DNA of 64,000 bases from Sandaracinus sp. (GTDB taxonomy: Bacteria; Myxococcota_A; Polyangia; Polyangiales; Houyiibacteriaceae). Shown piece by piece: positions 11,628 to 45,459 of the stretch. Position numbers and translations under genes: made by a program. The stretch lies in the NCBI GenBank assembly GCA_020633125.1, contig JACKEH010000009.1, forward strand, positions 27,680 through 91,679. Reading direction: 5' to 3'. Each line of letters starts with the position of its first letter. Position 1 is the first letter of the stretch. The notes beneath the pieces were generated by a model. That model was not told the DNA's origin. It was given only the letters and a program-made list of their open reading frames with translations, and made no database searches.

Positions 11628-11646
11628 GCGAGCGCTCCGCAGAGAG

Positions 11647-11676
11647 ACGCCGCGCCTTCGGGTGCGGCGTTTTTCG
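11647..11676 (+). terminator. intrinsic terminator after skp
   Basis: ACGCCGC-gccttcgggt-GCGGCGT hairpin followed by TTTTCGTTCC. Confidence 0.7.
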
Positions 11677-11740
11677 TTCCGTCGATCGCGCCACGGTTCG
11701 CGCGCTTGCGCCCGACGGGAATCCCCGTAGACCACTCTCC

Positions 11741-14134: not shown

Positions 14135-14647
14135 ATGCGCCTCTACAGCGGAAAAGTCCCCGTCATCGCGGAAGATCTCCTTCGCGTCCTCACGGCCGAC
14201 GGCGACATCGAGGTCGAGAGCGCCGACGAGGTCCGCATGGACTTCGAGTCGGTCCTGAAGGAGTTCGTTCGTCGCGAGCGCCAGGTCACCGACGAAGCGA
14301 AGAACCAGATGGAGCGCGCGGGTCTGAGCTACTCGATGCTCGGCAAGATCAAGTCCCAGGTCGCCAAGGACATGGGCTTCCCCGAGCCGGACGAGCAGCT
14401 TCCCTACCTCGTCTCGCAGCTCCTCACGATGCTCTTCCACAGCAACAACGTCGCCGAGGTCTTCTCGGAGGACATGGACCTTCGCAAGAAGATCACGACC
14501 GTCCTTCGCAACCACACCTCGTCGGGCAACGAGCTCGACCGCGAGGTCCGTTCGAAGATCAAGAACCTGCAGGAAGGCACCGCGGCGTTCGAGATCGAGT
14601 ACGAGCGCGTCATGTCGCAGCTGAAGGCGCGCAAGGGCCTCACCTGA
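14135..14647 (+). CDS. DUF507-like conserved hypothetical protein
   Basis: 170-aa ORF starting MRLYSGKVPVIAEDLLRVLTADGDIEV..., charged and helical. It resembles the DUF507 family as I recall it from delta-proteobacteria. Normal, non-shadow amino-acid composition. Confidence 0.65.
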   Translation: MRLYSGKVPVIAEDLLRVLTADGDIEVESADEVRMDFESVLKEFVRRERQVTDEAKNQMERAGLSYSMLGKIKSQVAKDMGFPEPDEQLPYLVSQLLTMLFHSNNVAEVFSEDMDLRKKITTVLRNHTSSGNELDREVRSKIKNLQEGTAAFEIEYERVMSQLKARKGLT

Positions 14648-14670
14648 GCGCCTCGCGACACCCGAATGCG

Positions 14671-14700
14671 AAGAGCCCCGACCGTCTGGCCGGGGCTCTT
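14671..14700. terminator. hairpin between convergent genes (possible bidirectional terminator)
   Basis: AAGAGCCCCG-accgtctggc-CGGGGCTCTT, a perfect 10-bp stem with weak T-tracts on both strands. It is followed by a 15-bp direct repeat gctctttcgatcc(gt) x2. Confidence 0.5.
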
Positions 14701-14752
14701 TCGATCCGTGCTCTTTCGATCCCTGCTCTCTCGAGCTCGTCTTCGTTCGAGC

Positions 14753-15463
14753 TCAGGACTCGAGGCGAATCGGCCGGAACCAGCGGAGCAGCAAGAAGAG
14801 GTCGAGCGCGACCGCGAGCGCGCAGAGCACCGCCAGCACCAGCGCCCAGACGTACGTGCCTGGCGCCTCGTCGGCGAGCAGCACGAAGGTCTCCGAGCTC
14901 ACGGGCACGTCCATGCGGTCGAAGGTCCGCTGCACGGCCGAGAAACGGGAGCCGAGGTCCCCGACCGTGACGAGGCGGCCCGAGAACTCCCGGCGCGCGG
15001 AGGCGCGGTTCTCGAACCCGTCGTCCGCCGGCACCTGCACCAGGATTCGGCGCTGTCCCGCCAGCGGGAAGACCGCGTAGCGATCGCCGAAGACCCGCTC
15101 GTAGGTCACCCGGGTGCTGGCCATCGGGGTGCCCTCGAGGGTCACGAAGCTGTTCGAAGCCAGCGAGGCCGGGTCCACGGTGATCGCTTCGCCCACGGGC
15201 TCCGGTCGGTCGGCCGCGAAGAAATACGAGACGTCCGCACGCAGGGTCAGCAGCATCCCGATGGCCAAGGCGGCGCAGGCGGCCATGAGCGTCAGAGTGG
15301 CGAGCCGAGGACCGCGTGCCGGCGCGGGCAGCGCCAAAAGCTCGGGATCGACGCCCGCGGCGGGGCCGGAAAGCAGGATCTCGTCGCGTTCCACGGTGGT
15401 CACGAGGGGCTTGGACAACGGGTCGCCCGCTTTGTTCGCGGGGTCGTGGGCGACATGGTGCAC
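14753..15463 (-). CDS. hypothetical membrane protein (N- and C-terminal TM helices)
   Basis: This is the C-terminal ~236 aa of ORF 14753..16150. TM helix LATLTLMAACAALAIGMLLTL, a soluble beta-rich middle and the TM helix YVWALVLAVLCALAVALDLFLLL. Start guessed at GTG 15463 (alternative GTG 15481). The upstream part of the ORF collides with the plus-strand gene 15668..16030. Confidence 0.5.
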   Translation of the reverse strand: MHHVAHDPANKAGDPLSKPLVTTVERDEILLSGPAAGVDPELLALPAPARGPRLATLTLMAACAALAIGMLLTLRADVSYFFAADRPEPVGEAITVDPASLASNSFVTLEGTPMASTRVTYERVFGDRYAVFPLAGQRRILVQVPADDGFENRASARREFSGRLVTVGDLGSRFSAVQRTFDRMDVPVSSETFVLLADEAPGTYVWALVLAVLCALAVALDLFLLLRWFRPIRLES

Positions 15464-15582
15464 CGAGGTGGTTTCGCCCACAATCCCGGCGTCCACCGGG
15501 GCTTCGTTGCATCCCCGGCGGGCCCCTGCTAGACCGCGCGCCCCGCGAGACGACGCCGAAGGGCGCCTCGCACACGGATCAC

Positions 15583-15650
15583 GGTGGGAGATTCCCACCC
15601 GAAGACGGTGGGAATCACCCCACCCGGAAGACGTGGTGGGTATTCCCACC
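15583..15650 (+). promoter_or_regulatory. three tandem inverted repeats GGTGGGA-N-TCCCACC in a divergent intergenic region (candidate operator or 5'-UTR hairpins)
   Basis: GGTGGGAGATTCCCACC (15583-15599), GGTGGGAATCACCCCACC (15607-15624) and GGTGGGTATTCCCACC (15635-15650). The last two are preceded by GAAGACG. The array ends 18 nt before ATG 15668. Confidence 0.45.
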
Positions 15651-15667
15651 GATTGGAGCCAAGAACC

Positions 15668-16030
15668 ATGAAGCTCTCGCCCCTCCAGGCCGCCAAGAAG
15701 CGTTTCGGCATCGAAGAGTCCAACCCCACCCTCGCCCGCAAGGCGGTCAAGGAGAAGCTGGTCGACGCCGTCCAGAAGCTCACCGACGACGGCCTCTGGA
15801 TCGACCGCGTCAACGGGGACAAGGGCCTCTCGAGCGTCTCGAACCGCAAGCTCCTCCACCTCCTCGAGGTGCTCGAGGCGGTTCAGAAGCACGGCGGCCG
15901 CGCCAAGGTGATCGCGGACGTGGTCAGCCTCGAGGGCCGCAAGGACGAGACCTACGCGTCGCGCTTCGAGAAGTTCTCGACGCCGCGCCTCTGGGACGCG
16001 TACCGCACCGCGAAGAAGCGCGCGAACTGA
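15668..16030 (+). CDS. small basic hypothetical protein (120 aa)
   Basis: GGAG lies about 10 nt upstream of ATG 15668. MKLSPLQAAKKRFGIEESNPTLARKAVKEKLVDAVQKL... is Lys-rich with normal composition, unlike the overlapping shadow ORFs. No family recognised. Confidence 0.6.
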   Translation: MKLSPLQAAKKRFGIEESNPTLARKAVKEKLVDAVQKLTDDGLWIDRVNGDKGLSSVSNRKLLHLLEVLEAVQKHGGRAKVIADVVSLEGRKDETYASRFEKFSTPRLWDAYRTAKKRAN

Positions 16031-16185
16031 TCGCGTTCGCGCGAACGGATCACGCGTTCGCACGACCCGAGCGGGCCCTCCTCTGGAGCGGCCCGCTTTA
16101 TCGTGGGTGCCAGCGAGACGCCCCCACGAGCCGCCTGGCCCCCGCATCACGGTCCCCTTTCGCGACAGCCTGCTAGAACGTCCGC

Positions 16186-16857
16186 ATGCCGGGCGCGCCG
16201 CTCCTCGAGCTGCATCGCGTGGGGTTTCGGGCCGACGGGCGCGACATCCTCGCCGACGTCTCGCTCACGGTGCACGAAGGCGAGCTGCTCGGCGTGGTGC
16301 TGCAGCACGGCGCTGGCAAGTCGCTGCTCCTGTCGATCGCCGGCGGGCTCGTTCGGCCCACGCACGGCGAGGTCGTGTACCGTGGTCGTCGCATCACCGA
16401 GCTCGCGAGCAGCCCGCCGAAGCTCGGCTTCGTGTTCGAAGACGACGGTGGCCTGCTCGCCAACCTCTCGGTGTACGAGAACGTCGCGCTGCCGCTTCGC
16501 TACCACTTCGGTCTCGAAGGCGACGCGCTCGACGCGAAGGTCCGTGAAGCGCTCGGCCTCGTCGGGCTGGAGGACGCCGCGACCCACATGCCGTGGCAGC
16601 TCACCGGGGACCGACAGCGCCTCGCCGCGCTCGCCCGCGCCATCGCCTACGAGCCGGAGCTGATCTTCGTCGACGACTTCTACGTGAACGCCGACCAGGA
16701 CGCGTTTCGACGGATGCAGGAGTCCGTCGCGATCATGCGCGAAGCCCACGGCACGGCGTTCCTCCTGGCGGTCGACGGCAGCGGTGAATTCGGCATCACG
16801 GATCGGCTCTGCTTGGTCGATCACGGCACGGTGCTGGAGCTCGAACGGCCGGCGTGA
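16186..16857 (+). CDS. ABC-ATPase-like protein with degenerate catalytic motifs (MlaF-like fold)
   Basis: Overall ABC NBD layout, but Walker A is LQHGAGKS and the Q-loop is VFE. The signature is LTGDRQ instead of LSGGQ, and Walker B/D-loop is IFVDDFYVNAD instead of hhhhDEPxxGLD. There is no H-switch His (LLAVDG). Confidence 0.75.
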   Translation: MPGAPLLELHRVGFRADGRDILADVSLTVHEGELLGVVLQHGAGKSLLLSIAGGLVRPTHGEVVYRGRRITELASSPPKLGFVFEDDGGLLANLSVYENVALPLRYHFGLEGDALDAKVREALGLVGLEDAATHMPWQLTGDRQRLAALARAIAYEPELIFVDDFYVNADQDAFRRMQESVAIMREAHGTAFLLAVDGSGEFGITDRLCLVDHGTVLELERPA

Positions 16858-16917
16858 GCTCGCCGTGGGCGGCGCCATCCACCGGGCCGAAGTCGTCCGG
16901 AGGAGGCGAAGGAAGAC

Positions 16918-19900
16918 GTGCGTCTTTCGCCCGAGGGACTGCTACCCTCGCGCGCCGTGACGCTCGCGATCGACACCCTCGCGGTCCTCGACGAGCTGCC
17001 CGACGGGACCTGCGTCGCCTATCCGGTAGTCGAGCCGCAGCACGTCGCGGTCGGCAGCGAAGGGGACGTCTTGGCCGAGCTTCGGCTCTTCCTGGCGGAC
17101 GAGCTCGCCAGCGCGCCGCCGCACCGCATCGCGCGCTATGCGCTCCCCGAGTCGGCGGCCGCCCAGACGATGGAGATTCGGCTGCCGGAGCTCGAGCTGC
17201 CGGAGCGAATGCGCGCCGACGCCAGCGTGCCGATGACCGCCATCGTCATCCCACACGAGGGCGCGTCTTGGGTGCTGGTGCCGGCGCTCCGTCACGTCGT
17301 CTACGTGTCGAAGGGCGAAGCGCTCGAGTCGACCGCGATTCACGAGATCGAGCGGCACCTCCGCGCGCACGCCCCCAACGCCGCCGAGCGACTCGCGTTG
17401 CTTCCCCCGGCGGACACGCGCGTCGTCCCGCTGCGTCTGCTCGTCGACCGCGAAGGCGAAGCCGCACGGGGGGTCGCGCGTCAGAAGGAGCTCCTCGAAG
17501 CGCGGCGCCGCAAGGAAGCGCTCGCGGTGCTCGAGAGCGTGGGCACGCCGCTTCATGCGCTCCCGGACGGTCCGCCCGTCGTCGGACGCGAGGACGTCGT
17601 GCAGACCATGCACGGCCTGCTCGGCGGACGGGAACGACGCAGCGTCTTGCTCGTCGGCCCCGAACGCGTCGGCAAATCCGACGTGCTTCGCGCGTGGCTG
17701 CGCGGCCCGGGGCGCGGTCGCCGCGCGTTCGCGACGAGCGGCGCGCAGCTGATGGCGGGCATGAGCGGGCTCGGCCAATGGCAGGAGCGCCTGCGGCGCG
17801 TCGTGGCCGCGGCCGAAGAGCTCGACGCGCTCTTGGTCTTCTCGGATCTCACCGACCTCTTCGACCAGACCGGCAAAGGCAACGTCGACCTCCCGGCAGC
17901 GCTCAAGCCGGCGCTCGAAGAGGGCCGCGTGCGGGTGGTCGGCGAGCTCACGGAGGCCGCGGCCGATCGATTGCTCGGGCGGCACGAAGGCTTCTTTCAG
18001 AGCTTCCAGACCGTGCTCGTGCCCACGACCGATCGCAAACATGGACGTCGGCTGCTCGAAGCACGCGCGGCCCATGCGGTCGAGCAAGGGCGCCCCACGG
18101 TCGACGAGGGCGCGCTCGACGCGATGCTCGCGCTCGCCGAGCGCTACCTCGCGTACCGCGTGTTCCCAGGAAAAGCCGCGGAGCTCTTCGACGACGTGGT
18201 CGCCGCGTTCGAGCGGCCGGGCGTCGCGGCCGTCGATCTCGACGTCGTGCGTGCGTCCGACGTCTTTCGGCACTTCGCGACGACCAGCGGCATCCCCGAG
18301 GCGCTCTTGCGCGACGACCGCGCGCTCGAGCCCGATCGGCTTCGTGCGCGCTTCGAAGCGCGCATGGTCGGCCAACACGCCGCGGTCAGTGCCGTCGTCG
18401 ACACGCTCTGCGTGGTGAAGGCCGCGCTCGCGCCCGGCGACAAACCGCTCGCGACGTTCCTCTTCGCAGGGCCGACCGGCGTCGGAAAGACGGAGCTCGC
18501 GCGCGCGTTGGCGGAGATTCTCTACGGCGCCGACGACCGCCTCGTGCGCTTCGACATGAGCGAGTACGCGGACGCGTGGTCGGCGCGACGTCTGGTCGAC
18601 GGTGACGACGGCGGCGACGGCCTGCTCACGCGAAAGGTTCGCGAGCAGCCCTTCTCCGTGATCTTGCTCGACGAGATCGAGAAGGCGCATCCCTCCGTCT
18701 TCGACTTGCTGCTGCAGGTGACCGGCGAGGGACGACTGACCGACGGTCGAGGCCGCACCGCGCACTTCCACAACGCGATCCTGATCCTCACGAGCAACCT
18801 CGGCGCTTCGCACGGCGCACGCACGCTGGGCATCGACGCGCGCGCTTCCGCGGACGATCCGATGGACGCGATTCGAAAGCATTTTCGACCCGAGCTCGTC
18901 GGTCGCCTCGACCGCGTGATTCCTTTCCTCGCGCTCGGGCCCGAAGAGATCGCGCACGTCACGCGGCTCACCGTCGAGCGCGTCGTGCAACGTCGTGGGC
19001 TTCGCGATCGCGGCGTGGCGCTCGAAGTGAGCGAAGACGCGCTTCGGGTGCTGGCGACGGGCGGCTACGACGCCGTGTACGGCGCACGCGCGCTGCGACG
19101 CCACGTCGAGAGCGCGCTCGTCTCGCCGCTGGGCGACCTGCTCTCGTCGGTCGGTCGAGTCGCCGCGGGTAGCACCGTCTTCGTGCGCAGCGAAGACGCA
19201 TCACCGGCCGAGGGCGCACGTTTTCAGCGTGCGTCGCACGGACTGGTGCTCGAGCTCGTCGTGGGCGAGACCAAGGTCGCGCGTGCCGACCTTCGGGGCC
19301 TGGGCGACGCGACCACGTTGCGACGGGACCTCGCGAAGTGGATGGCGACGCCTGCGGTCGAACAGGTCGCCGAGGAAGTTCGCTCGACGCTGGTGCAACT
19401 CGCGATGCCGCGCTCGAAGGCGGAGCTCGCACGGGCCGGCGCCGAGCTCGCGCACCTTCAACGCGAGCTGCACCGCATGGGCAAACCCTGGGAGGAGCTG
19501 CAGCGACGCCAGAACGAGGTGCTCGAGCTCGAAGAGCTCTGCTTCGCGGCGTGGCTCGAAGGGGACACGGACGGAACGCTCGCCTCGTGGGCGGAGGAGC
19601 TTCCGGAGCTCCGTCACCGCGTGCGCATGGCGCTGCTCGCGACCTTGGTCGAGCGCACGCCGCGGCACGCGATCACGGTGCTCTGCGAAGAGCTCGACGA
19701 AGGCCGCTCGCTCGACGGATGGCTCGGGCCGCTGCTCGGCGATCTCGGGCGCCGCGGTTGGAGCGCGACCTTTCATCTTCACAAAGACTCGACCCCTTCG
19801 GGCGAGCCTTGGCCGACCGACCGTTCCTTCGGCCCGCCGCGTGACGCCGACTGGATGAAGGCGTGGCTCGCGCGGCCGGTGCGAGACCGCGCCATCGTGC

Positions 19901-20304
19901 TCGCGCGCATTCGCGGGCCCCACGCGGGGACGCTCGTGACGCTCGAGACCGGGTTGCACCGCTACCTCGGCGTGGCGCCGCGCACGAGCGGTTCGCATCA
20001 CCGCATCACGCTCCTCGCGCTGCGCGACACGATTCGCGAGGGCGAGTGGAAACATGCCGCGCTCCAACCCGGCGCACCTCCCGCACCCGACAAGGCGTTG
20101 AAGCAGCAATGCCGACGTTGGACGGATGAGCGTCCTGGCCAGAAGCTGCCGCCCGACTACATCCCGGTGCCGCTGACGGACTATTGGCTGCCGCACAGCT
20201 ACGACGAGCTTGCGCTTCGCGAGCTGCTCGCCTCGGAAGACCCGGACGTGTTGTTCACGGGCGCCGCGTTCGGCGACGAGGAGGATGAGGAGGACGAGCG
20301 ATGA
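16918..20304 (+). CDS. ClpA/ClpC-like double-AAA+ ATPase, paralogue 1 (novel N-terminal module, decayed D1, intact D2, release-factor-like C-terminal domain)
   Basis: GTG start preceded by AGGAGG. D1: LLVGPERVGKSDV with FSDL at the Walker B position. D2: FLFAGPTGVGKTELARAL, SVILLDEIEKAHPSVFDLLLQV, ILTSNLGA and YGARALRR. About 350 aa lie C-terminal of D2. Confidence 0.85.
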   Translation: MRLSPEGLLPSRAVTLAIDTLAVLDELPDGTCVAYPVVEPQHVAVGSEGDVLAELRLFLADELASAPPHRIARYALPESAAAQTMEIRLPELELPERMRADASVPMTAIVIPHEGASWVLVPALRHVVYVSKGEALESTAIHEIERHLRAHAPNAAERLALLPPADTRVVPLRLLVDREGEAARGVARQKELLEARRRKEALAVLESVGTPLHALPDGPPVVGREDVVQTMHGLLGGRERRSVLLVGPERVGKSDVLRAWLRGPGRGRRAFATSGAQLMAGMSGLGQWQERLRRVVAAAEELDALLVFSDLTDLFDQTGKGNVDLPAALKPALEEGRVRVVGELTEAAADRLLGRHEGFFQSFQTVLVPTTDRKHGRRLLEARAAHAVEQGRPTVDEGALDAMLALAERYLAYRVFPGKAAELFDDVVAAFERPGVAAVDLDVVRASDVFRHFATTSGIPEALLRDDRALEPDRLRARFEARMVGQHAAVSAVVDTLCVVKAALAPGDKPLATFLFAGPTGVGKTELARALAEILYGADDRLVRFDMSEYADAWSARRLVDGDDGGDGLLTRKVREQPFSVILLDEIEKAHPSVFDLLLQVTGEGRLTDGRGRTAHFHNAILILTSNLGASHGARTLGIDARASADDPMDAIRKHFRPELVGRLDRVIPFLALGPEEIAHVTRLTVERVVQRRGLRDRGVALEVSEDALRVLATGGYDAVYGARALRRHVESALVSPLGDLLSSVGRVAAGSTVFVRSEDASPAEGARFQRASHGLVLELVVGETKVARADLRGLGDATTLRRDLAKWMATPAVEQVAEEVRSTLVQLAMPRSKAELARAGAELAHLQRELHRMGKPWEELQRRQNEVLELEELCFAAWLEGDTDGTLASWAEELPELRHRVRMALLATLVERTPRHAITVLCEELDEGRSLDGWLGPLLGDLGRRGWSATFHLHKDSTPSGEPWPTDRSFGPPRDADWMKAWLARPVRDRAIVLARIRGPHAGTLVTLETGLHRYLGVAPRTSGSHHRITLLALRDTIREGEWKHAALQPGAPPAPDKALKQQCRRWTDERPGQKLPPDYIPVPLTDYWLPHSYDELALRELLASEDPDVLFTGAAFGDEEDEEDER

Positions 20305-23300
20305 ACCTGCTCGTGCCGATCTTTCAACGCAAAGCCGCCGGCTACCTGCATTGGACGCCGCTCGCGGTCGGTCTGACGCTCGAGCCCAAACGTTTCGTGA
20401 GCGAGACGAAGCTTCGCGAGCACCTCGGCCGCGACCTCGAGTCCGCGCTCGTGAAGGCGCCCCCGAACGCGGTGACCACGCTCGGTTCCCCACGCAGCGT
20501 CTCTCTCGAACGGGTTCGTCTCGAGCTGAAGCTCGAAGGCTCCCACGGGCGCCGAAAGAAGACGGGCGTGTTCCCCGTGGTGCTCGACGCACGCCGACTC
20601 CCCGACCGACGCCGCCGCGTGCTCGCGTACCACCCGTTGCGGCAGAACGAGGTGATCGTCGTCGACGAAGAGAAGCCGCTCGCCGCACAGATCGGCGCGC
20701 TCTTCGGCCACACCTGGGGCGAGCTCGACGACGAGGCCCTGACCGCGCTCGAGCTGCAGGCGCGCGACGCGCTTCGCACGATCCCGGTGTCGGTTCGCCC
20801 GACCTCGGTGCTCGACCGTGCGGGCAAGAAGGAGAACCTCTTCGACGACCTCCGCACGGAGTCGGAGAAGGCGCGCCGCAAAGGCCGCGGCTCGCTCGCG
20901 GTCTTGCACGAGATCGGCATCGACCTCGGCGCACGTGCGGGTGGGATCGTCGGGGGCAACGAAGGCGCGGCGGCGGGCTTCGACGTCGGCCGTCCTCGCG
21001 AACCGCTTCGCACGCAGCTCCAACAGATGCTGGTGACGCCGAAGAAACGTTCGTTCGTGCTCCTCGGCGCGCCGGGCGCGGGCAAACGCACCGCGTTGCG
21101 ACGAGGGGTGCTCGATCTCGTCGAAGCCGAAGGCTACGCGACGCACCGCGACCTCGAGCGCACCACGCGCGTCTTCTCGATGGCGGGCAGCCGGCTCATC
21201 GCCGGCATGTCGCGGGTCGGCGAGTGGGAGGAGCGCGCGCTCGAGGTGGTGGCGGCGGGTCGCGGTCGTGGGCTCGTGCTCGTGGTCGAGGACCTTCACA
21301 CCTTCGGACGCGTCGGCCGCAGCCGCGACAGCGAGCGCTGCTTGGCGGACGTGTTGCGAGGTCCGGTCGAGCGCGGCGAGCTCGTGCTGACGGGCTCGTG
21401 CACGGCCGCGCAATGGACCCGGCTCGAAGAAGACGCGCCGGGCTTCGCGGCCCTCTTCGCCCGTATCCCGGTGCAAGCGGCCAGCGCGGACGAGACGCTG
21501 CGCATGTTGCTGCACGAGGGCCGCAAGCTCGAAGCCGAGCACACGGTGCATTTCGCGCCGACGGCCTACCGAACGATCCTCGAACAGTCGCAGGCGCTCT
21601 TTCCCGAGCGCGCCCTCCCCGGCAAGGCGCTCGACCTGCTTCGCGCCTTCGACGCGGGGAACGTGAGCAGCCAAGAGGTGCTCGAGCGACTGGTCACCAC
21701 CACGGGTCTGCCGGAAGAGCTCCTCGATCCGAGCGGGACGCTCTCGCTCGACGAGGTCGTCTCGGAGCTCGCGGACGAGGTCGTCGGCCAAGGCGACGCG
21801 GTGCGCAGCGTGGCGGAGCTCGCGCTTCGCATTCGCACCGGCCTCGTCGATCCGCGGCGCCCCTACGGCACGTTCCTCTTCACCGGACCGACGGGCACCG
21901 GCAAGACGCAGCTCGCCAAGACGCTCGCGCGTTACCTCTACGGCGACGACGACCGACTCGTTCGTTTCGACATGGGCGAGCTCTCGGGCCCCGACGCCGT
22001 GCCGCGACTCATCGGCCACCGCGGTCGGCCCCGCGGCATGCTCACCGAAGCGGTCCGTCAGCGGCCCTTCGCCGTGTTGCTCCTCGACGAGATCGAGAAG
22101 GCCCACCCCTCCGTCCTCTACCTGCTCCTGCAGCTCCTCGACGACGGGCGGCTCACCGACGCGGCCGGCGACCGCGTGAGCTTCTCGCATTGCGTCGTCA
22201 TCATGACCTCGAACCTCGGCGCGCGAACGCGTCCCGCGGTGGGCTTCGGCGCGCCGAGCGAGCAGAGCCGCATGGCCGAGGTCACACGCGCGGTGAAGGA
22301 CTTCTTTCCGCCCGAGCTCTTCAACCGCATCGACCGCGTGGTGCCCTTCTCGCCGCTGGACGCCGAGAGCGCACGTTCGATCGCGGTGCGTGAGCTCGAG
22401 GCGTTGCTCGGTCGTCGAGGGCTCACCGACCGCAACGTCTTCGTGCGCCCCCACGCCAGCGCCGTCGACCGTCTGGTCGCCGAAGCCTTCGACGAACGCG
22501 CCGGCGCGCGCAGCGTGCGCCGCTACCTCGAGACGCACGTCGCCTCGTTGCTCGCGGAGCACCTCGCCTCGACGGTGCGTCCGGAGCTCGAGGTGATTCA
22601 GCTCTTCGACCGCGCGGGTCGGTTCACGCTTTCGTCCGATGCGTTGCGCGAAGCCCCGCCGCTCGCGGGTGACTCCGCGCTGCGCCCGCTGCTCGACGTG
22701 TCGATGCAAGCGCTCGTCGAACGGATCCCGGACGCGCTCGCGGCCCTCGACGACGCGGTCGCGTCCGGAGCGCTCGACTCGCTCGGCACGCGGATTCGGG
22801 ACCACCTCGCGCGTGCGTCGGGATCGGTGGCGGACGCCGACGCGCTCTTCGATCTCGAGCGGCTTCGCGGGGAGGTCGAGCGCGCACGCGAGGCGCTCGA
22901 GGCCCTCGCGCATCGTGATCAACTCAGCGCGGAGGCCGAGCTCGAGCTCGCGACCGGTGCCTGGGGAACGCTCGCAGACCGCGACCGCGACGGCGCCAAA
23001 CGGCGCGTGCGCTTGCTCGACCGCCGCATGCTTCGTTCGGCCGCGATTCCCGTCGGAAAACGCGCGCTGCTGCAGTGGCACGCGACGGCGATGCACCTCG
23101 CGCGCGAGCTTCGCTCGGCCGAGCACGACCCGGCGCGTCATCGCGTGCAGGTCGAGCTCTTGCGTGTGGGCGTCGGGCGCGGCGCGAAGGCGCTCGGGCT
23201 CTTCGGCGCGTTGACGCGGCACTACGTCGAGCTCGGCCGCGAGCTCGTGGGACACGCGGCGTTGGTTCGTGGGGAGGTGCGTGAAGGCGACCTCGCCGGC

Positions 23301-23744
23301 CTGCTCGATCTGGGCCCCGAGATGGTGGTGCTCGAGCTCCACGGCATCGGCGTGCGTGGGCTCTTCGAGCGCGACGAGGGGTGCCACGTCTTCTCGCACG
23401 CGGATGGCAGCTCGGAGATCGTGCGCGTGCGTGTGCTCGACGCAGACCTGCCGCCCGACCGTCGCATCGCCACACACCTCGAAGCGCGTCTCGCGCTCGA
23501 AGCCGCGGTGGCCGGAACGGGCGCGCTTCCCGAGGACGCGCGAGGCGACGCACGCGGCCCCGACGCGCTCGCTCCCGTCGTGCGGCGCTACTACGGCGAC
23601 CTCGTCCGAGGTCACGGCGCGAGCACGGCCTTCACGGTCGAGGACCACCGCATGACGCACGTCGAAGCCGCCGAGGTGCGCGCGCTCGAAGAGCTGCTGG
23701 CGCCCTTCACTTGGCTGGCCATGGGCTGGCAGGAGGAGGCGTGA
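20301..23744 (+). CDS. ClpA/ClpC-like double-AAA+ ATPase, paralogue 2 (same architecture as paralogue 1)
   Basis: ATGA overlap with the upstream gene. D1: LLGAPGAGKRTAL with VVEDLH. D2: FLFTGPTGTGKTQLAKTL, AVLLLDEIEKAHPSVLYLLLQL, IMTSNLGA, a VGF loop and AGARSVRR. About 400 aa lie C-terminal of D2. Confidence 0.85.
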   Translation: MNLLVPIFQRKAAGYLHWTPLAVGLTLEPKRFVSETKLREHLGRDLESALVKAPPNAVTTLGSPRSVSLERVRLELKLEGSHGRRKKTGVFPVVLDARRLPDRRRRVLAYHPLRQNEVIVVDEEKPLAAQIGALFGHTWGELDDEALTALELQARDALRTIPVSVRPTSVLDRAGKKENLFDDLRTESEKARRKGRGSLAVLHEIGIDLGARAGGIVGGNEGAAAGFDVGRPREPLRTQLQQMLVTPKKRSFVLLGAPGAGKRTALRRGVLDLVEAEGYATHRDLERTTRVFSMAGSRLIAGMSRVGEWEERALEVVAAGRGRGLVLVVEDLHTFGRVGRSRDSERCLADVLRGPVERGELVLTGSCTAAQWTRLEEDAPGFAALFARIPVQAASADETLRMLLHEGRKLEAEHTVHFAPTAYRTILEQSQALFPERALPGKALDLLRAFDAGNVSSQEVLERLVTTTGLPEELLDPSGTLSLDEVVSELADEVVGQGDAVRSVAELALRIRTGLVDPRRPYGTFLFTGPTGTGKTQLAKTLARYLYGDDDRLVRFDMGELSGPDAVPRLIGHRGRPRGMLTEAVRQRPFAVLLLDEIEKAHPSVLYLLLQLLDDGRLTDAAGDRVSFSHCVVIMTSNLGARTRPAVGFGAPSEQSRMAEVTRAVKDFFPPELFNRIDRVVPFSPLDAESARSIAVRELEALLGRRGLTDRNVFVRPHASAVDRLVAEAFDERAGARSVRRYLETHVASLLAEHLASTVRPELEVIQLFDRAGRFTLSSDALREAPPLAGDSALRPLLDVSMQALVERIPDALAALDDAVASGALDSLGTRIRDHLARASGSVADADALFDLERLRGEVERAREALEALAHRDQLSAEAELELATGAWGTLADRDRDGAKRRVRLLDRRMLRSAAIPVGKRALLQWHATAMHLARELRSAEHDPARHRVQVELLRVGVGRGAKALGLFGALTRHYVELGRELVGHAALVRGEVREGDLAGLLDLGPEMVVLELHGIGVRGLFERDEGCHVFSHADGSSEIVRVRVLDADLPPDRRIATHLEARLALEAAVAGTGALPEDARGDARGPDALAPVVRRYYGDLVRGHGASTAFTVEDHRMTHVEAAEVRALEELLAPFTWLAMGWQEEA

Positions 23745-26014
23745 TGGCGCAGGCCGCACGAAGCTTCCGTGTCTATTTCGTCGCGCACGCCGACGGGAAA
23801 CACACCGGTCTGTTGGTTCGTCGCTATTCGAGCCTCTTCGATGGACCACCCCCGAGCGCCTACGGATCCGACGAAGCGTCGGTGCTGCGGCAGCTCGAGC
23901 TCGACCTGCGCCTCCGCCTCTCGCGAAACCCGGGAGAGCTCGACCGCTACCTGTGGTCGGAGGCGTTCGAGACGCGGACCGTCTCGCTCACCGTCAGCCC
24001 CGCGAGCGTGGTCGACAAGCAGCCCGTCATCGCCAAGCGCGAGATGCCGCTGCGACTCACGTACGCGTGGTGCAAGGCGCAAGATGGCTCGTACCGGGTG
24101 ATGCTGCCGCGCTTCGATTGGTGGCTGATCCTCGAAGACCTGCAGACCGCGAAGGGCGCGCTCGAGCACGCGATCTCCGGCGCGCTCCTCGGCGCCGAGC
24201 CGGCATGGCTCTACGATTTTCGACGGGAAGGCGAGGAGCACGTCGTGGCGTGGGAGCCCGCGCTCTTGCGTGAGGTGAAGGTCAGCGCCGACGCGCCGAA
24301 GGAGACCGACGAGCGGAAGGTGCTCGCGCAGGTCGCCGACGATTGGGTCGGGCGCGCGAGCAAAGGAAAGCTGCCGCGCCCGGTGGGGGAGCCGCGCGTG
24401 AAGTCGTCGTGGCTGCCGGCGATCTCGCAGGACCCGAGCCGTCCGCTTCGTTCCTTGCTCTTCGTCGGTGACTCGGGTGTCGGCAAGACGACCGAGGTGC
24501 GGCACGTCGCGCATGCGCTGCTCGCGCTCGGGCGCGAACGAAAGAACACCCGTTCCCCCGGCCTCTTCGCGACGAGCGCCGAGCGCCTGCTGGCCGGCAT
24601 GATCTACCTCGGCATGTGGCAAGAGCGGGTGCTCGCGCTCGTCGACGAGCTCTCGGGCGACCGCGACTTCCTCTACGTCGACCGGCTGCTGCCCCTGCTC
24701 GCGCCCCAAGCCGACGGCGCGTCGATCGCGAGCTTGCTCGGTGGCCCGATGGCCGAAGGCGAGATCACGCTCGTGGCCGAATGCACGCGCCAAGAGCTCG
24801 CCGAAGCGCGACGCCGCGACGCCGCCTTCGTCGATCATTTCGTGACGATTCCGATGCGCGAGCCGAGCCTCGCGGCGCTCCTGCCCAACCTTCGCGCCTT
24901 CGCCGACCGCGGAAAGAAGTCGCTGCATCCGCGCGCGATTCGGCGCGCGGCCGAGCTGCTCGCGACCTACCGACGAGACCGCAGCTTTCCCGGAAAGGCG
25001 TACCGATTCCTGGAAGCGCTCGAGGCCGACGACGCGACGCCCTCGACCGTGTACGCGCCCGATGTCGAAGCCGCGTTCGCGCGCACGACCGGGTTGCCGC
25101 TGGAGCTCGTGAGCGACGCGACGCCCGCGGGCGTGCAGACCGTGGCGGGCCGTCTTCGCGAAGGCGTGATCGGCCAAGACTCCGCATGCGAAGCGGCCGC
25201 GCGCGCCATCGCGCCCTTCAAGGCGGGTCTCGGCCCACCGGACCGGCCGCTGGCGGTCTTGCTCTTCGCGGGCCCCACCGGAGTCGGCAAGACGGAGCTC
25301 GCGAAGCGCATCGCGGGTTACCTCTTCGGCGACGACAAACGCATGGTCCGCGTCGACATGAGCGAGCTGTCGACGCCCGGCAGCGCGTCGCGCTTGGTGG
25401 CGACGGGGCGCGGCGTGCGAAGCCTCGCCGAGAGCGTTCGACGCGAGCCGCTCGCGGTCGTGCTCTTCGACGAGGTGGAGAAGGCACACCCGGAGGTCTT
25501 CGACCTCTTGCTCGGTGTGCTCGGCGAAGGTCGCATGACCGACGACTCCGGACGTTTCGTCGACTTCCGGATGACCTTCGTGATCATGACGTCGAACCTC
25601 GGCGCGCGAGACCGCGACCCCGTCGGCTTCGACGGCCGCACGAGCGACGCGGACTACCTGCGCGCGGTGCGCGAGGCGTTTCGACCCGAGCTCCTCGGGC
25701 GCATCGACCAGGTCGTTCCCTTTGCCTCCCTTCGACCGGATGCGGTCAGGCGCATCGTCGACTTGCAGCTCGCGGGCATCGCGAAGCGCGAAGGCTTCAC
25801 GCGACGCGGCATCGCGCTTCGGGTCAGCGAAGCGGCGCGTGATCGCCTGGCGGAGCTCGGCTACGAGCCGCGCTACGGCGCGCGTCCGCTCAAGCGCGTG
25901 CTCGAAGGTCGCGTGGTGACGCCGCTCGCGGCGAAGCTGGCGGCCGACCCCGCGCTCCGGCATCGCACGTTGCGGGTCGGCGCCGAGGGCGAGGACGCCG
26001 ACGTTCACGTCTGA
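23744..26014 (+). CDS. ClpA/ClpC-like double-AAA+ ATPase, paralogue 3 (no C-terminal extension)
   Basis: ATG 23744 overlaps the upstream TGA (gTGATG). D1: LLFVGDSGVGKTTEV with YVDRL. D2: LLFAGPTGVGKTELAKRI, AVVLFDEVEKAHPEVFDLLLGV, IMTSNLGA, a VGF loop and YGARPLKR. Confidence 0.85.
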   Translation: MAQAARSFRVYFVAHADGKHTGLLVRRYSSLFDGPPPSAYGSDEASVLRQLELDLRLRLSRNPGELDRYLWSEAFETRTVSLTVSPASVVDKQPVIAKREMPLRLTYAWCKAQDGSYRVMLPRFDWWLILEDLQTAKGALEHAISGALLGAEPAWLYDFRREGEEHVVAWEPALLREVKVSADAPKETDERKVLAQVADDWVGRASKGKLPRPVGEPRVKSSWLPAISQDPSRPLRSLLFVGDSGVGKTTEVRHVAHALLALGRERKNTRSPGLFATSAERLLAGMIYLGMWQERVLALVDELSGDRDFLYVDRLLPLLAPQADGASIASLLGGPMAEGEITLVAECTRQELAEARRRDAAFVDHFVTIPMREPSLAALLPNLRAFADRGKKSLHPRAIRRAAELLATYRRDRSFPGKAYRFLEALEADDATPSTVYAPDVEAAFARTTGLPLELVSDATPAGVQTVAGRLREGVIGQDSACEAAARAIAPFKAGLGPPDRPLAVLLFAGPTGVGKTELAKRIAGYLFGDDKRMVRVDMSELSTPGSASRLVATGRGVRSLAESVRREPLAVVLFDEVEKAHPEVFDLLLGVLGEGRMTDDSGRFVDFRMTFVIMTSNLGARDRDPVGFDGRTSDADYLRAVREAFRPELLGRIDQVVPFASLRPDAVRRIVDLQLAGIAKREGFTRRGIALRVSEAARDRLAELGYEPRYGARPLKRVLEGRVVTPLAAKLAADPALRHRTLRVGAEGEDADVHV

Positions 26015-26200: not shown

Positions 26201-29200
26201 TCACTGCACGCGAAGCGTCTGCTCCGGCGTGCGCGCCACGACCGATCCGCCCGCGTCTTCGAGCTCGGCGGGTGGCAAACGCACCGTGCCCGCCAGACGC
26301 GCCACGAGCGCCAACGTCAGGTCCGCTGCGCCGTCGCCGAGCGCCACGACGAGCTCGTCGTCTTCCATCCAGGCGGCCTCGACGCGTGGATGCGCGCGCA
26401 GGGGCTCCAGCAGCACGTCGATCCCGCTCGGAAGGACTTGGCGCAAGGTGCGCGGCCCTTCGCCGGGTAGCCGCAAGACCGCGTTCGTCGGCGCGCCCAC
26501 GGCGAGCTCGTCGGGCAGACGTCGCGTCATCGCGGCGTTCTCGTCTCGCGTCGCGCGCTCGTCCCACACGAGGTGCGAGAGCTCGACACGGGCCTCCTGC
26601 GGCCCCGACCAACGCACCTTCACGCGATGCGTACCGGGCGCGAGCGCGAGCTCCCGAGCGCGAAGCGCGAGCGCCGCGGCCCACAGGTCCTCGCTCGACA
26701 CTTCGATGCGCTCGACGACCTCGCCGTCCACCTCGACTTCGAGCGTTCCGTCGCCTTCCGGCACCGGCCGAAGGCGCGCGAGTGCCCGCAACGCGTGAGC
26801 CGTTCCGCGTCCGCCGTGCGCGCTATCCCAGCTGTTGCGAGTCGAGAGGAGAAAGCGCGCCGCCGACGGCGCGACACGCTCGAAGCGACGCGGCGCGACG
26901 TCCTCGAGGACCTCCAGCGCGACGTCCACCGCCGCGACGTGCCCGGCCCACGCGTCGAGCCATTGCGGCTCGAAGTGCGTGAGGTTTCGAAGGTCGACCA
27001 GCCGCTCCGCCGCGCGAGCGACGAGGTTTCGGTAGCTCGAGGCATCGAGCGCGTGAAGAAACGCCGTGCAGTGACCGAGCACGCGCGGGTCGGTTCCGGG
27101 TTGCTCGAGCTCGGCGGTGCAGAGCACCCGCCACGCGAGCATCGCCTCGTGCTGATCGCGGCGCGGGCGAACCTTCACGACCGCGTGCGCGGCTTGGGCG
27201 GCCAGCGCGCGACGCTCGAGCTCGCTCTGACCGCGCCACGCCGCCATCGACCGCACGTCGAGGAATCCGTGGTCGTCCGCGGCGGCGAGCACGTAGTCGC
27301 GCGCGGAGAGCACCGCGCTCTCGGGCACCATCGCGCCGATCGCGTTCAAGGCCGAGAGCGCCTCGAGCGCCATCACCGAGACGTAGGGATCGCTGCGCCG
27401 CCCCGCGTCACGGGCAAAGCGGTTTCCGACGCCACCGTCGGCGTTCTGCGCGCTCACGAGCGCGAGCGCGAGCCGATCGAGACGCACGCGCAACGCCGCG
27501 CGCGCACGCTCGTTCAGCTGCCCCGTTTGTTCCAGGTAGCGCCACACCGCCGCGGCGCCGAGCGCGCGATGGGCCGCGCTGGCCGGGCCATCCGTCTCAC
27601 CTTCGAACGCGTCCAAGCCTTGAAGCAAGGGCACGCCGTTCGGCAGCGTCACCTCGAGGCGCACCACCTCGTAGCGCTCGGACGACACCGTGACCTCCGT
27701 CTGCACGTCGCGACCTTCGCGCGAGGTGCCGAAGGCACGACGCACGCTCGGCTCGCCGCGCGGCCGAACACGCACCGCGCGGCGCTCGACGTCGACGAAG
27801 TCGTCGGCCCGCGCGCTCGCCTCGAACGACGCCTCGCCTGCACGACGTGCATGCACCGTGAAGGTCGTCGCGACGGCGCCGTTTGCCGGCAGGTCGAGCG
27901 TCGCGGCCTCGCCTTCGACCGCGAGCGCTTCGCTGCGAAGGTCCAGCCGCGCCCGCACCGGCGTGTCCCCGAGGTTGCGCGCGACGACCGGCACCTCGAC
28001 CACGTCGCCGACGCCGAGCGTGGCGGGCACCTCGGCGCGCACCTGCAGGCGCTGCCGCACTGGGATGGTGGCGCGGGCGGTCGCGATGCCGCCTTCGCGA
28101 TCGGAGGCCACCACGGTGAGCGTCTGTTCGGTCAGCGTGTCGGGCAGCTCGGCATGCAGCCGCAACGTGCCGTTCTCGGCCACGAGCGTCGGCTCCCAGA
28201 GGCTCGTCTCCGCGAAATCCGTTCGAAGGACGATCGTCGTCGGCGCCGCGCGCGGGGTGCTCGGGCGACGTCCTCGAAAGCCTCCTGCACCACGTCCGTA
28301 GCCCGAGCCGGTTCCGCCCCCCGCGCCGTGTCCGATGGTGCCGAGGTTGCCGAGGCCGATGGTCCCTTCGCCCGTGCCTCCACCGCCCATGCCCGTGCCC
28401 GTCAGGCCCAACCCACCGAAGCCGAAGTTTTCGCCGATCGAATCGCCCATGAGCGCACCGAGCGCTCCCATCGGGTCGTTGCCGAGCGCGGTGCCGCTTC
28501 CGTAGCCACCGCCTCGACGCCGCGGCGGCGGCGGTCGACGGCCGTCGTGGTAGCCGAAGTTCGGCGGCCATCCGATGTCGTAGCGCTCGACGCCCCACGT
28601 GCGCGCGACCACCGGCCACGTGAGGGTCTGCGCACCGGTGCTCGCCAGCACCTTTCGCTCCGCGTTGTAGAAACGATCCCGCGGCGCGCGCTCGAGCGGA
28701 TCGAGCAACGCGAGCACCGCGGAGTCGACCACGCTGGCACCGACGAGCGCTTCGCGTGCTTGCCCGTCGCGGACGACACGAACCTCCGCGTCGATTCGCT
28801 CGCCCGGCGCAGCGGATTCGGGCAACCCGCCGAGCGTCACTTCGAGGCGCTGGCCCGGTTGCACCACGAGGTTCTGTCCGTCCGTGAGCAATCCGACGTC
28901 GGCCCCGCGCCGCCCCACCGTGAAGAGCGTGAGCAACATCGAGCCCCAGCTCGTCGCGTTCACGGTCGCACGCGCCAGAGGTTCGTCCCCGCCGCGTTCG
29001 ACCGGCACGAGGAACGAGTCGACGATCGCGCCCGAGCTGTCGACCACGTCTGCGTGCACGACCTCTTCGTTCGGCACGACGTCGCGGGGGAAACGCACCA
29101 ACACTTCGAAGGGTTCGCCCTCCGCGATCACGGTGTGCTCGACGGACGAGCGCATCGGAAGCACGGCTCCTCGCGGCAGGTTCGCGCGCGCGACGTCCTC

Positions 29201-30667
29201 CGCGTCGTCGGTGCTGGCCGAGAGCTCGCCCTCGGCGTCCGGCATGGGAAAACGAAAGAGCGCGACCCCTCCGTCGTCGGTGCGCAGACGCATCGCGCGT
29301 CGTCCGGGAATGTCGAGCCGCACCTGCGCGGCACGCACCGGAACGTCGTCGAGGTCGACGAGGCGCACCATCGCCGCCACCGGCTCGCCCGGCGCGTAGC
29401 GGGTCTTGTCGAGCTCGATGCTCGCCTTGTAAGGCACCGTCTCGTAGCGGAGGTCGCGTAGCAATCGCTCGACTCGCCCGAGCGCGTCGCGCACCTCGAG
29501 CTCCACGGTGACAGAGCTCCCGCGGCGACGTCGCATCACCGAACGCACGCGCTCGAGCGTCGCGGCGTCCAACACGAACGCGTGCGGTCCTGCGCCCTCG
29601 ACGCTTCGCGACGCGGTGTGTACCTCTTGGCCCTCGGCACGGACTTTCAGCGCCACCTCGCCACGCTCGAAACGACCGCCGTCGACGTAGGCGAGCGTCA
29701 CCTCGAAGGGCAGCGTCTCGACACGCGGGGTGAGAAAGCGCGGGAGGTCGTGCTCGATGCGAATCACGGGCGCGACGAAGCGACGGATCTGCACCGGCGA
29801 ACGCGCGCTCTCCGAGCCCGCCGACACGGTGATTTGGTAGGTGCCTTCTTCGGCGTGGGCGGGGATCGGGAGGTCGAGGTTCGCGACGCCCCACTCGTCG
29901 GTGCGCACGCTGCCCCCGCCGACCAGCTTGCCGCTCGGATCCGCGAGCTCGACGCTCAAGACGTGATGGGGCAACGCGCGGTATTCGCCACGCAAACGCC
30001 ACGCGAGCGCGCGAAGGTGCAACGTGCGTCCCGGCTGAACGACGCCGCGATCGGTGTACGCGTAGATCGTGGTCGCTTCGAAGGTCGGCGTGCGCGAGAA
30101 CGACGAAAAGCGGGTCGAGCGTACGTGCTCGCCGTGGCGCACCGTGAGCACGCCCGCGGTTCCCGAGTCTTCGTCACGTGGGCGCCGCCGGAACACGAAG
30201 GTGCCGTGTGCCTCCGTCCGGCCCACGAGGGCTCCGTCGAGGAAGACCTCGGCGCTCGGGACCGGCGCGTGCTCCGCGTCGAGCACGACGAGGTGCACCC
30301 ACGAGCCCTCGCCCGCCCACGCTTGGTAGGGGAAATCCATCACGAGATGGAGCGGAGGCGCGACGTAGCTTCCCGACGCGTACTCGGGCGCGGTGCTTCC
30401 GAGCGGGAAGACGGGTCCGGCTTGCTCGGGCGTGAGCGTCTCGCCGGACGCGGCTTCGCCGATCTTCACGTCGATCTCGCCCGGCCGTTCGATCGAAGGA
30501 AGCGCTGCGTCCTCGCCTTCGAAGACCCCACCGTCGTGAACCTCGCGCGTGAGCCGCAGATCGGACCACTCGTCCGTCGGCGCCGCTTCCTGCCACTCGA
30601 GCTTCTCCCCGCCGCACGCCGCGAGCGCGCACGACGCCGCGACGAGCACCCGCGCGCTCCACGTCAT
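26201..30667 (-). CDS. alpha-2-macroglobulin-family lipoprotein (no thioester motif visible)
   Basis: GGAGG lies about 7 nt upstream of ATG 30667. Lipoprotein signal MTWSARVLVAASCALAAC. The protein is about 1488 aa of repeated MG-type beta-sandwich segments. A TED-like region (AAVWRYLEQTGQLNERARAAL...NADGGVGNRF) resembles the A2M thioester domain. No C-x-E-Q anywhere in the ORF. Confidence 0.8.
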   Translation of the reverse strand: MTWSARVLVAASCALAACGGEKLEWQEAAPTDEWSDLRLTREVHDGGVFEGEDAALPSIERPGEIDVKIGEAASGETLTPEQAGPVFPLGSTAPEYASGSYVAPPLHLVMDFPYQAWAGEGSWVHLVVLDAEHAPVPSAEVFLDGALVGRTEAHGTFVFRRRPRDEDSGTAGVLTVRHGEHVRSTRFSSFSRTPTFEATTIYAYTDRGVVQPGRTLHLRALAWRLRGEYRALPHHVLSVELADPSGKLVGGGSVRTDEWGVANLDLPIPAHAEEGTYQITVSAGSESARSPVQIRRFVAPVIRIEHDLPRFLTPRVETLPFEVTLAYVDGGRFERGEVALKVRAEGQEVHTASRSVEGAGPHAFVLDAATLERVRSVMRRRRGSSVTVELEVRDALGRVERLLRDLRYETVPYKASIELDKTRYAPGEPVAAMVRLVDLDDVPVRAAQVRLDIPGRRAMRLRTDDGGVALFRFPMPDAEGELSASTDDAEDVARANLPRGAVLPMRSSVEHTVIAEGEPFEVLVRFPRDVVPNEEVVHADVVDSSGAIVDSFLVPVERGGDEPLARATVNATSWGSMLLTLFTVGRRGADVGLLTDGQNLVVQPGQRLEVTLGGLPESAAPGERIDAEVRVVRDGQAREALVGASVVDSAVLALLDPLERAPRDRFYNAERKVLASTGAQTLTWPVVARTWGVERYDIGWPPNFGYHDGRRPPPPRRRGGGYGSGTALGNDPMGALGALMGDSIGENFGFGGLGLTGTGMGGGGTGEGTIGLGNLGTIGHGAGGGTGSGYGRGAGGFRGRRPSTPRAAPTTIVLRTDFAETSLWEPTLVAENGTLRLHAELPDTLTEQTLTVVASDREGGIATARATIPVRQRLQVRAEVPATLGVGDVVEVPVVARNLGDTPVRARLDLRSEALAVEGEAATLDLPANGAVATTFTVHARRAGEASFEASARADDFVDVERRAVRVRPRGEPSVRRAFGTSREGRDVQTEVTVSSERYEVVRLEVTLPNGVPLLQGLDAFEGETDGPASAAHRALGAAAVWRYLEQTGQLNERARAALRVRLDRLALALVSAQNADGGVGNRFARDAGRRSDPYVSVMALEALSALNAIGAMVPESAVLSARDYVLAAADDHGFLDVRSMAAWRGQSELERRALAAQAAHAVVKVRPRRDQHEAMLAWRVLCTAELEQPGTDPRVLGHCTAFLHALDASSYRNLVARAAERLVDLRNLTHFEPQWLDAWAGHVAAVDVALEVLEDVAPRRFERVAPSAARFLLSTRNSWDSAHGGRGTAHALRALARLRPVPEGDGTLEVEVDGEVVERIEVSSEDLWAAALALRARELALAPGTHRVKVRWSGPQEARVELSHLVWDERATRDENAAMTRRLPDELAVGAPTNAVLRLPGEGPRTLRQVLPSGIDVLLEPLRAHPRVEAAWMEDDELVVALGDGAADLTLALVARLAGTVRLPPAELEDAGGSVVARTPEQTLRVQ

Positions 30668-30739
30668 CCCGAACCTCCGTGGCTTCCCCCGACCTCGGCC
30701 GGAGCTCGAGGTTCCCACGAAAGCGGTCGGACCTGCAGC

Positions 30740-45409: not shown

Positions 45410-45459
45410 CCACCGACGCTATGCGGCGGCCGGGATCGACGCGAGTTTTCGGCGATCGT

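Follow-up and report, generated by a model that had tools for sequence, protein, structure and literature searches.

Three coupled Hsp100/Clp-class paralogues with RF2-like C-terminal extensions in Sandaracinus and other Myxococcota

Bacterial Hsp100/Clp unfoldases are usually regarded as homo-hexamers. ClpA and ClpC have two AAA+ tiers (D1 and D2) and no M-domain; ClpB and Hsp104 have an M-domain inserted in D1, and ClpB requires both of its rings and its pore tyrosine. Double rings in which one tier binds nucleotide without hydrolysing it while the other is the motor occur in eukaryotic proteins such as Pex1/Pex6, NSF and the p97 type, and Pex1/Pex6 is a hetero-hexamer of paralogues. Dom34 is a release-factor mimic that lacks the catalytic Gln and acts in ribosome rescue, and the release-factor-like protein Vms1 works with the double-ring AAA+ protein Cdc48 (PMC6514570). 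Here we describe three adjacent genes, A, B and C, within a stretch of 64,000 nucleotides (the window) of contig JACKEH010000009.1 from Sandaracinus sp., which resemble ClpA and ClpC in outline and carry, in two of the three, a C-terminal extension that looks like part of a release factor. The best overall explanation, to which we assign a probability of roughly 40%, is that they form a mixed Hsp100-class motor with RF2-like arms, possibly directed to the ribosome.

All three genes lie on the forward strand, in a window with a G+C content of 66-74%. Gene A (16918-20304) encodes 1128 residues from a GTG at 16918, comprising an N-terminal module, a degenerate D1, an apparently active D2 and an RF2-like extension; the annotation of the metagenome-assembled genome (MAG) starts it at 16957, giving 1115 residues. 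Gene B (20301-23744) encodes 1147 residues and its start overlaps the stop of A in ATGA (20301-20304). Gene C (23744-26014) encodes 756 residues, lacks a C-terminal extension, and overlaps the stop of B in TGATG (23742-23746). These reading frames and overlaps are as originally predicted. GGAGG-like Shine-Dalgarno sequences lie 8-12 nt upstream of all three starts, including the GTG, where GGAGGAGG lies 10 nt upstream of 16918. To judge by the overlapping start and stop codons and the internal Shine-Dalgarno sequences, translation of A, B and C is coupled. An identical C protein is found in two Polyangiales MAGs, GCA_020633155.1 and GCA_020633175.1.

Above threshold, Pfam recognises only AAA_2 and ClpB_D2-small in each protein, that is, the D2 tier; the D1 matches (AAA and AAA_lid_9) are sub-threshold, and Clp_N has no match in any of the three, even at E ≤ 10. 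The proteins have no M-domain, because ClpA aligns over D1 and D2 in one uninterrupted stretch; the predicted lack of Clp_N and of a long ClpB-type M-domain is therefore borne out by both analyses. The NCBIfam models for ClpA, ClpB, ClpK, ClpG and TssH give 195-337 bits against cut-offs of 885-1900. For ClpA the scores are 290-310 bits against 993 (TIGR02639) and 195-239 against 1350 (PRK11034), for ClpB/Hsp104 308-337 against 1232 (TIGR03346), and for ClpV/TssH 225-241 against 885 (TIGR03345). By sequence, A, B and C are therefore members of the Hsp100/Clp class but orthologues of no named member: they are not ordinary ClpA or ClpC genes, nor ClpB or ClpV (225-337 bits against cut-offs of 885-1232).

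The predicted fold of the D1 tier is that of a Clp D1. A 460-residue model of the N module and D1 of C matches only Clp D1 domains in Foldseek, with E of about 1e-15 to ClpA and ClpC1. The D1 motifs of A lie at 17656-18009, with the Walker A motif GPERVGKS at 17656-17679, the pore loop GMSGLGQW, whose tyrosine position holds Gly, at 17758-17781, the Walker B motif LLVFSDL, without the catalytic Glu, at 17830-17850, and FFQSFQ at the Arg-finger position (17992-18009). In B (21066-21461) the Walker A motif is GAPGAGKR (21066-21089), in which Thr is replaced by Arg in this genome while most orthologues are intact; the pore loop is GMSRVGEW, the Walker B motif VLVVEDL, and the Arg-finger position FAALFA. 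In C (24467-24844, aligned to ClpC1) the Walker A motif is GDSGVGKT, the pore loop GMIYLGMW keeps its Tyr, the Walker B motif is FLYVDRL, and the Arg-finger position reads FVDHFV. 

Across 32 sequences the D1 Walker A motif is nearly always GxxGxGK[ST], the GKR of the window's B being among few exceptions. The 'DE' position of Walker B reads D[QND], EN, SD or GN in the A family, [DE]D in the B family, and DR, GN, GQ, DS, ES or GA in the C family. The Arg-finger pair within ERRFQ of ClpC1 is replaced in all three families, RR becoming QS, AL and DH in the window. Because the P-loop is kept but neither the catalytic Glu nor the Arg fingers remain, hydrolysis in D1 has very probably been lost, leaving a tier that would still bind nucleotide. 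The original prediction held that D1 had decayed differently in each copy, in a complementary way. This does not stand: Walker A is kept, and the loss, of the Walker B Glu and the Arg fingers, is the same in all families and ancient.

D2, by contrast with D1, has every sequence feature of a catalytically complete motor. It lies at 18469-19101 in A, 21885-22523 in B and 25271-25897 in C, and its Walker A, Walker B, sensor-1, Arg finger and GAR sensor-2 motifs are canonical, as in ClpA and ClpC, in all sequences aligned; it had been called canonical in all three, and the motifs are intact across the orthologues too. The individual motifs quoted in that prediction read as given, except that the D2 Walker B of gene C is VLFDEVEKAHP rather than one with LLDE.

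What had been overlooked is that the substrate-gripping pore loop of D2 is truncated. Compared with GAPPGYVG of ClpA, ClpB and ClpC (S. aureus ClpC was used in the alignment) it is about 5 residues shorter and has no GYVG. In the A family it is rich in Gly and acidic residues, for example DGDDGGDG in the window (18586-18630); in the C family it contains G-x-G, here ATGRGVRS (25388-25432). In the B family it carries an aromatic residue in 10 of 11 sequences (D[RA][WYF]xP[EDRQ]G), the exception being the window's own atypical HRGRPRG (22002-22046). The D1 loop is complementary to this: the 'KYR' tyrosine of ClpA and ClpC is kept in every C sequence, gives way to Gly in every A sequence, and in the B family the position holds Tyr or Phe in 8 of 11 sequences. 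The complementarity thus lies in the pore aromatics, which are shared out among the paralogues, and this is the best argument from sequence for a mixed ring. 

These features also bear on the idea of a stand-alone disaggregase or remodeller of the ClpB/ClpG kind that does not use ClpP. The top overall NCBIfam and PDB scores do go to ClpB, through D2. However, the trio has no M-domain and no Clp_N, its D1 is inactive, its D2 lacks the pore tyrosine, and it has a conserved hG[FILV] loop, and we regard this explanation as very unlikely.

The hG[FILV] tripeptide follows sensor-1 and occupies the place of AGF or VGF in ClpC and of the IGL loop in ClpA. It is LGI in A (18826-18834) and VGF in both B (22239-22247) and C (25622-25630). 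In all 33 of 33 sequences x-G-[FILV] occurs 8-10 residues after TSNLGA with an invariant Gly, and it aligns with AGF of S. aureus ClpC, so that the resemblance to the ClpP-docking loop noted in the original prediction is conserved. The segment around it is about equally long in ClpA and ClpB (as in the BAP construct), and its length is therefore not diagnostic, whereas the tripeptide is. That the tripeptide is conserved while the rest of the loop varies is consistent with a docking site for ClpP or a similar partner.

Among the most informative parts of the trio is the C-terminal extension, which follows ClpB_D2-small and is absent from the original prediction. It comprises 376 residues in A (residues 753-1128, 19174-20301) and 383 in B (residues 765-1147, 22593-23741). 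Inspected by eye, the A extension looks like the body of a release factor. When a profile of ten A extensions was compared with all PDB sequences, RF2 provided the top 12 matches (E 0.004-0.015). These matches are collinear, positions 67-203 of the profile aligning with RF2 29-167 and positions 245-268 with RF2 181-204. Similarly, Pfam PCRF is the sole family to match more than one A extension (2 of 10, best E 0.003). When three release factors (RF1 and RF2 of E. coli and the RF2 encoded in the window) were aligned and compared with the extension by hhalign, the probability was 94% (E 1e-7), with residues 62-299 of the extension falling on RF2 26-235. As controls, the non-coiled core of the extension against RF domain 2 gave 84% and E 8e-6, and a reversed release-factor alignment gave E 0.2. 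Identity to RF2 is very low (15-23%), and release-factor scores are far below the curated cut-offs of prfB (TIGR00020) and of Pfam PCRF and RF-1. 

The module in A, at about 19357-20070, corresponds to RF2 domain 1 and the PCRF/domain 2 body, here appended C-terminally to a double AAA+ motor. Characteristic stretches are WLGPLLGDLGRRGW (19720-19761) and IRGPHAGTLVTLETGLHRY (19909-19965). Nothing aligns with RF2 beyond residue 235 or so, the region of domain 3, which carries GGQ. A conserved GGQ is found in none of 21 extensions, the lone GGQ (in L011B) being outside the aligned part. The SPF/PxT codon-recognition position is not conserved either, with VAP, VPP, YPP, PSP and others in A orthologues, and the last 80-100 residues of the extensions show no assignable match to RF domain 4 (E 0.3). 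RF2 itself therefore differs from the A extension in having a domain 3, and a domain 4 that is undetectable here. We consider it highly likely, from these profile comparisons, that the A extension derives from domains 1 and 2 of RF2 without GGQ. Lack of both GGQ and a conserved SPF is shared with plant PrfB3 (PMC5897788).

The extension of B is probably homologous to that of A; its own characteristic stretch is LHGIGVRGLFERDEGCHVF (23337-23393). The two align collinearly in hhalign with E 2.6e-4 (cores 58%, E 1e-4). Against the release-factor alignment the B extension gives 11% and E 0.003, in the same register as A, and a merged A and B profile gives 94.7%. On these alignments it is probably RF2-derived as well. 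A diverged locus, L011, provides further evidence. The extension of its first gene matches NCBIfam prfB directly (E 6.6e-9), and its third gene, which is C-like (9797-12844, 1015 residues), has a release-factor-like tail, LTFNGTHASLLLKQELGNHRL, in register (E 9e-4). All three L011 subunits thus appear to carry the module, and therefore it is probably older than the triplication and was lost from the C gene of Myxococcota.

It is worth adding that the organism's own prfB, encoding RF2, lies in the window at 2094-3221 on the forward strand. It has a canonical programmed +1 frameshift site, GGGAGG TAT CTT TGA C, at 2160-2174; its stop-codon-reading SPF motif is SRF, and the His of RRHTSF is replaced by Glu (RRETSF). 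Immediately downstream of it is a class-II tRNA synthetase gene, in the place that lysS takes after prfB in E. coli.

With residues 1-460 of C as the query, 168 proteins of roughly 750-800 residues were retrieved, and all those with a named source belong to Myxococcota (Sorangium, Chondromyces, Archangium, and MAGs of Sandaracinaceae and Polyangiales). A and B orthologues were collected from their loci, since word-indexed searches gave only 1 match for the A extension and 3 for the N module plus D1 of B; a genome scan with a generic P-loop pattern gave at least 8 relevant loci. The order A-B-C, mostly with 4-nt overlaps, is found, among the matches listed, in Chondromyces crocatus, Archangium gephyra, Enhygromyxa salina and a Kofleriaceae MAG, and also in an 11.5-Mb metagenomic genome, a 430-kb scaffold, a Sandaracinaceae MAG and a syntenic close relative. 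'Deltaproteobacteria bacterium NP119' (L011, 51% G+C) and a Planctomycetota MAG have, again among the matches listed, more diverged versions of the three genes. The trio is thus co-conserved as a unit, with its gene order and overlaps kept, across many Myxococcota and beyond. In addition, Sorangium sp. So ce1389 and a Myxococcaceae MAG have solo C genes, neither A nor B lying within 10 kb of them, and another MAG has only a B-C pair. Next to the Sorangium solo C gene (at 14481-22412 of that locus) is a giant gene of 7981 residues as called, with Ntox11, PolyA_pol and UCH domains, which looks polymorphic-toxin-like.

Within each Myxococcota orthologue group, AAA-core identity is 52-54% (minimum 46%), and between groups it is 34.5-35.5% (maximum 40.5%). 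The genes are thus mutual paralogues, as predicted, at about 35% identity, and A, B and C must have been distinct before these lineages split. By this comparison the triplication is old and has given three separate orthologue groups, which together make up one branch of the Hsp100/Clp class that has not been described before. Mean orthologue identity is highest in D2 (57-60%), followed by D1 (45-46%), the N module (43% in C, 31% in B and 29% in A) and the C-terminal extension (28-30%). C is the best conserved of the three families.

These data can be set against the suggestion that the three proteins are independent homo-hexameric Clp-like ATPases, with different N-module specificities, that are merely co-expressed. 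Every subunit does have a complete D2 motor, and the solo C genes, the B-C pair without A and the strong conservation of the C family would all be natural on such a basis. On the other hand, gene order and 4-nt overlaps are fixed from the Polyangiales to Archangium and extend to the Planctomycetota MAG, and the distribution of aromatics makes A alone look unable to grip a substrate. The suggestion is accordingly improbable. It is likely that the trio is a conserved multi-subunit Hsp100-like machine; that A, B and C share one ring is our inference from the translational coupling, the co-conserved gene order and the complementary pore aromatics.

The N modules do not resemble any known adaptor or N-domain family, in agreement with the original prediction, which had been unable to assign them. 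None matches a Pfam family at E ≤ 10. The module of A (residues 1-215, 16918-17562) is family-specific and a remote homologue of those of B and C. For C (residues 1-205, 23744-24358), AlphaFold2 produced a confident model of residues 1-200 from 38 sequences (pLDDT 89, pTM 0.83), an alpha/beta fold for which no structural relative was found: the best Foldseek matches had E 0.075 in the PDB and 0.025 in BFVD. A profile of the C module found 105 proteins in 1.84 billion representatives, all of them C-type or fragments. The modules are collinear in hhalign (A-B 95%, E 5e-8; A-C 96%, E 3e-9; B-C 33%, E 5e-4), so the shared N-terminal module that had been proposed holds as a remote homology, detectable solely by profile-profile comparison. 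The order of secondary structures had suggested two HicB-like units; this guess was dropped, there being no Foldseek match at E < 0.02 in the PDB or BFVD. On the model of C, compared with the PDB and BFVD, the N module is a candidate new fold.

The genes flanking the trio vary from genus to genus. An ABC_tran gene (16186-16857, forward strand, 223 residues) ends 60 nt upstream of A, and an alpha-2-macroglobulin-family gene (MG2 and A2M domains, 1488 residues; 26201-30718, reverse strand) is convergent with C. Both recur beside the trio in the close relative only and not in other genera, so of the earlier suggestion of a conserved unit with or without the ABC-like gene, the trio is retained and the ABC-like gene is not. 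The setting in the window is housekeeping, with prfB, the class-II tRNA synthetase gene, an FtsX/MacB-type permease gene, bamA and skp, and further an OEP gene, mlaC, a glutamate 5-kinase-type gene (AA_kinase and PUA), a 3-hydroxyacyl-CoA dehydrogenase and a thiolase. Given this setting and no conserved neighbour, the trio appears to be a self-contained unit. Two long open reading frames of the window, at 57783-61829 on the forward strand (1348 residues) and 43745-45418 on the reverse strand (557 residues), have a strong coding third-position G+C bias and no Pfam match at E ≤ 1e-4.

An anti-phage defence role has some apparent basis, in that the PADLOC models DolB and PDC-M37B match the proteins with E 1e-19 to 1e-24. 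These matches are confined to the generic D2 AAA region and span the AAA core alone, for which reason the reading was rejected. The neighbours are housekeeping genes (prfB, lysS, bamA, skp, mla, proB), with no partner genes, no effector domain was found, and the three orthologue groups have been kept over distant Myxococcota lineages. We give the idea hardly any credence.

Searches of the same neighbourhoods are relevant to a further possibility, that the trio is an obligate hetero-hexameric unfoldase of the ClpA/ClpC kind which feeds ClpP, with N modules that select substrates and RF-derived extensions that are only structural or regulatory. The conserved hG[FILV] loop aligned with the P-loop of ClpC, the D1 fold nearest to ClpA and ClpC1, the lack of an M-domain, and a coupled and co-conserved operon all speak in its favour. 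Yet tblastn with E. coli ClpP and ClpS found no match in the window or in 12 related loci, so that no clpP or adaptor is near any of the 12; this, and the absence of type VI secretion system genes from the Pfam annotation of some 30 neighbouring reading frames, agrees with what had been reported for the window. Moreover, the GYVG translocation loop of D2 is missing in all three proteins, A has no aromatic in either ring, and a 370-residue RF-derived module has been retained across deep divergence, which points to a specific role in targeting. Compared with ClpA and ClpC, the trio has a new N module, of a different predicted fold, in place of Clp_N, a D1 without catalytic Glu and Arg fingers, a shortened D2 pore loop and RF2-derived C-terminal modules, and where those systems have a single gene it has three paralogues that look obligate. 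A ClpP-feeding unfoldase of this kind is possible, though we would not expect it.

On the basis of these observations, we hypothesise that A, B and C, as a mixed Hsp100-class motor with RF2-like arms, would work as follows. The three proteins would be made in constant proportions and come together in a single mixed hexamer, probably A2B2C2. In this the D1 tier would be a scaffold glued together by nucleotide and the D2 tier the motor, with pore aromatics contributed by some subunits only: C and most B in D1, and B in D2. The RF2-like arms would tether the complex to the A site and decoding centre of the ribosome, or to a surface to which RF2 binds, and would detect ribosomes whose A site is vacant or aberrant without themselves causing peptide release. 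The motor would then extract or remodel a ribosome-bound client, for example a nascent chain or a factor, which may pass through the hG[FILV] loops to a ClpP encoded elsewhere. The parts of this proposal carry different weight. That the trio acts on the ribosome at all is a tentative suggestion. The full version, an A2B2C2 extraction machine whose arms enter the A site of stalled or damaged ribosomes while D2 pulls the chain or a trapped factor towards ClpP, is more doubtful still.

The logic has counterparts elsewhere. In the ribosome rescue and quality control (RQC) of eukaryotes and archaea, Dom34/Pelota is likewise a release-factor mimic that lacks GGQ and is directed to stalled ribosomes, and Vms1 with Cdc48 likewise pairs a release-factor-like protein with a double-ring AAA+ motor. 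However, both have the unrelated archaeo-eukaryotic eRF1 fold and are polypeptides separate from their ATPase. The comparison with Pex1/Pex6 and with NSF or p97-type proteins is likewise an analogy only: these are eukaryotic members of the classical AAA clade, with two paralogues rather than three, and have no release-factor module.

Several observations weigh against the proposal. The extension of the window's A on its own matches nothing in Pfam or NCBIfam, the release-factor match being obtained through the family profile only, and the profile of the B extension finds no release factor in PDB, Pfam or NCBIfam. No ribosome-rescue gene was seen as a conserved neighbour of the trio. The window's B both lacks the D2 aromatic and carries the GKR Walker A, and the solo C genes of Sorangium So ce1389 and the Myxococcaceae MAG, together with the MAG that has only B and C, weigh on the mixed ring. 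The arms sit on the D2 side of the ring, where ClpP would dock, which may make it awkward sterically to perform both functions at once. Finally, plant PrfB3, which is related to RF2 but has neither SPF nor GGQ, binds the 3' end of an mRNA (PMC5897788). An RF2 relative has thus become an mRNA-binding factor, and ribosome targeting is therefore plausible but not required.

Full-text literature searches found no account of the trio or of a fusion between a Clp and a release factor, and the main survey of release-factor evolution mentions neither Clp nor myxobacteria. In the literature searched, the layout therefore corresponds to no characterised system, as had been supposed. The AAA+ core is already known; what is new is the combination of a three-paralogue set, a dead D1 ring and a truncated D2 pore loop, to which the orphan N module and the RF2-derived arms add, in a trio far from the named families. 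The trio is real, conserved and undescribed, and its functional reading is hypothetical.

If the reading is right, the trio would be the first obligate three-paralogue hetero-hexameric motor of the Clp class. The N module, a candidate new fold, occurs in only about a hundred sequence clusters out of 1.8 billion representatives. A dead ring combined with shared-out pore aromatics offers a natural test of how many gripping subunits a ring needs. The fusion raises the testable question of whether, in some bacteria, sensing of the A site is tied directly to an AAA+ motor that serves ribosome quality control. Eukaryotes use separate proteins for A-site sensing and for the AAA+ motor, and the trio, if the proposal is true, would be a fused bacterial counterpart of the rescue logic of Vms1/Cdc48 or of the Dom34 type.

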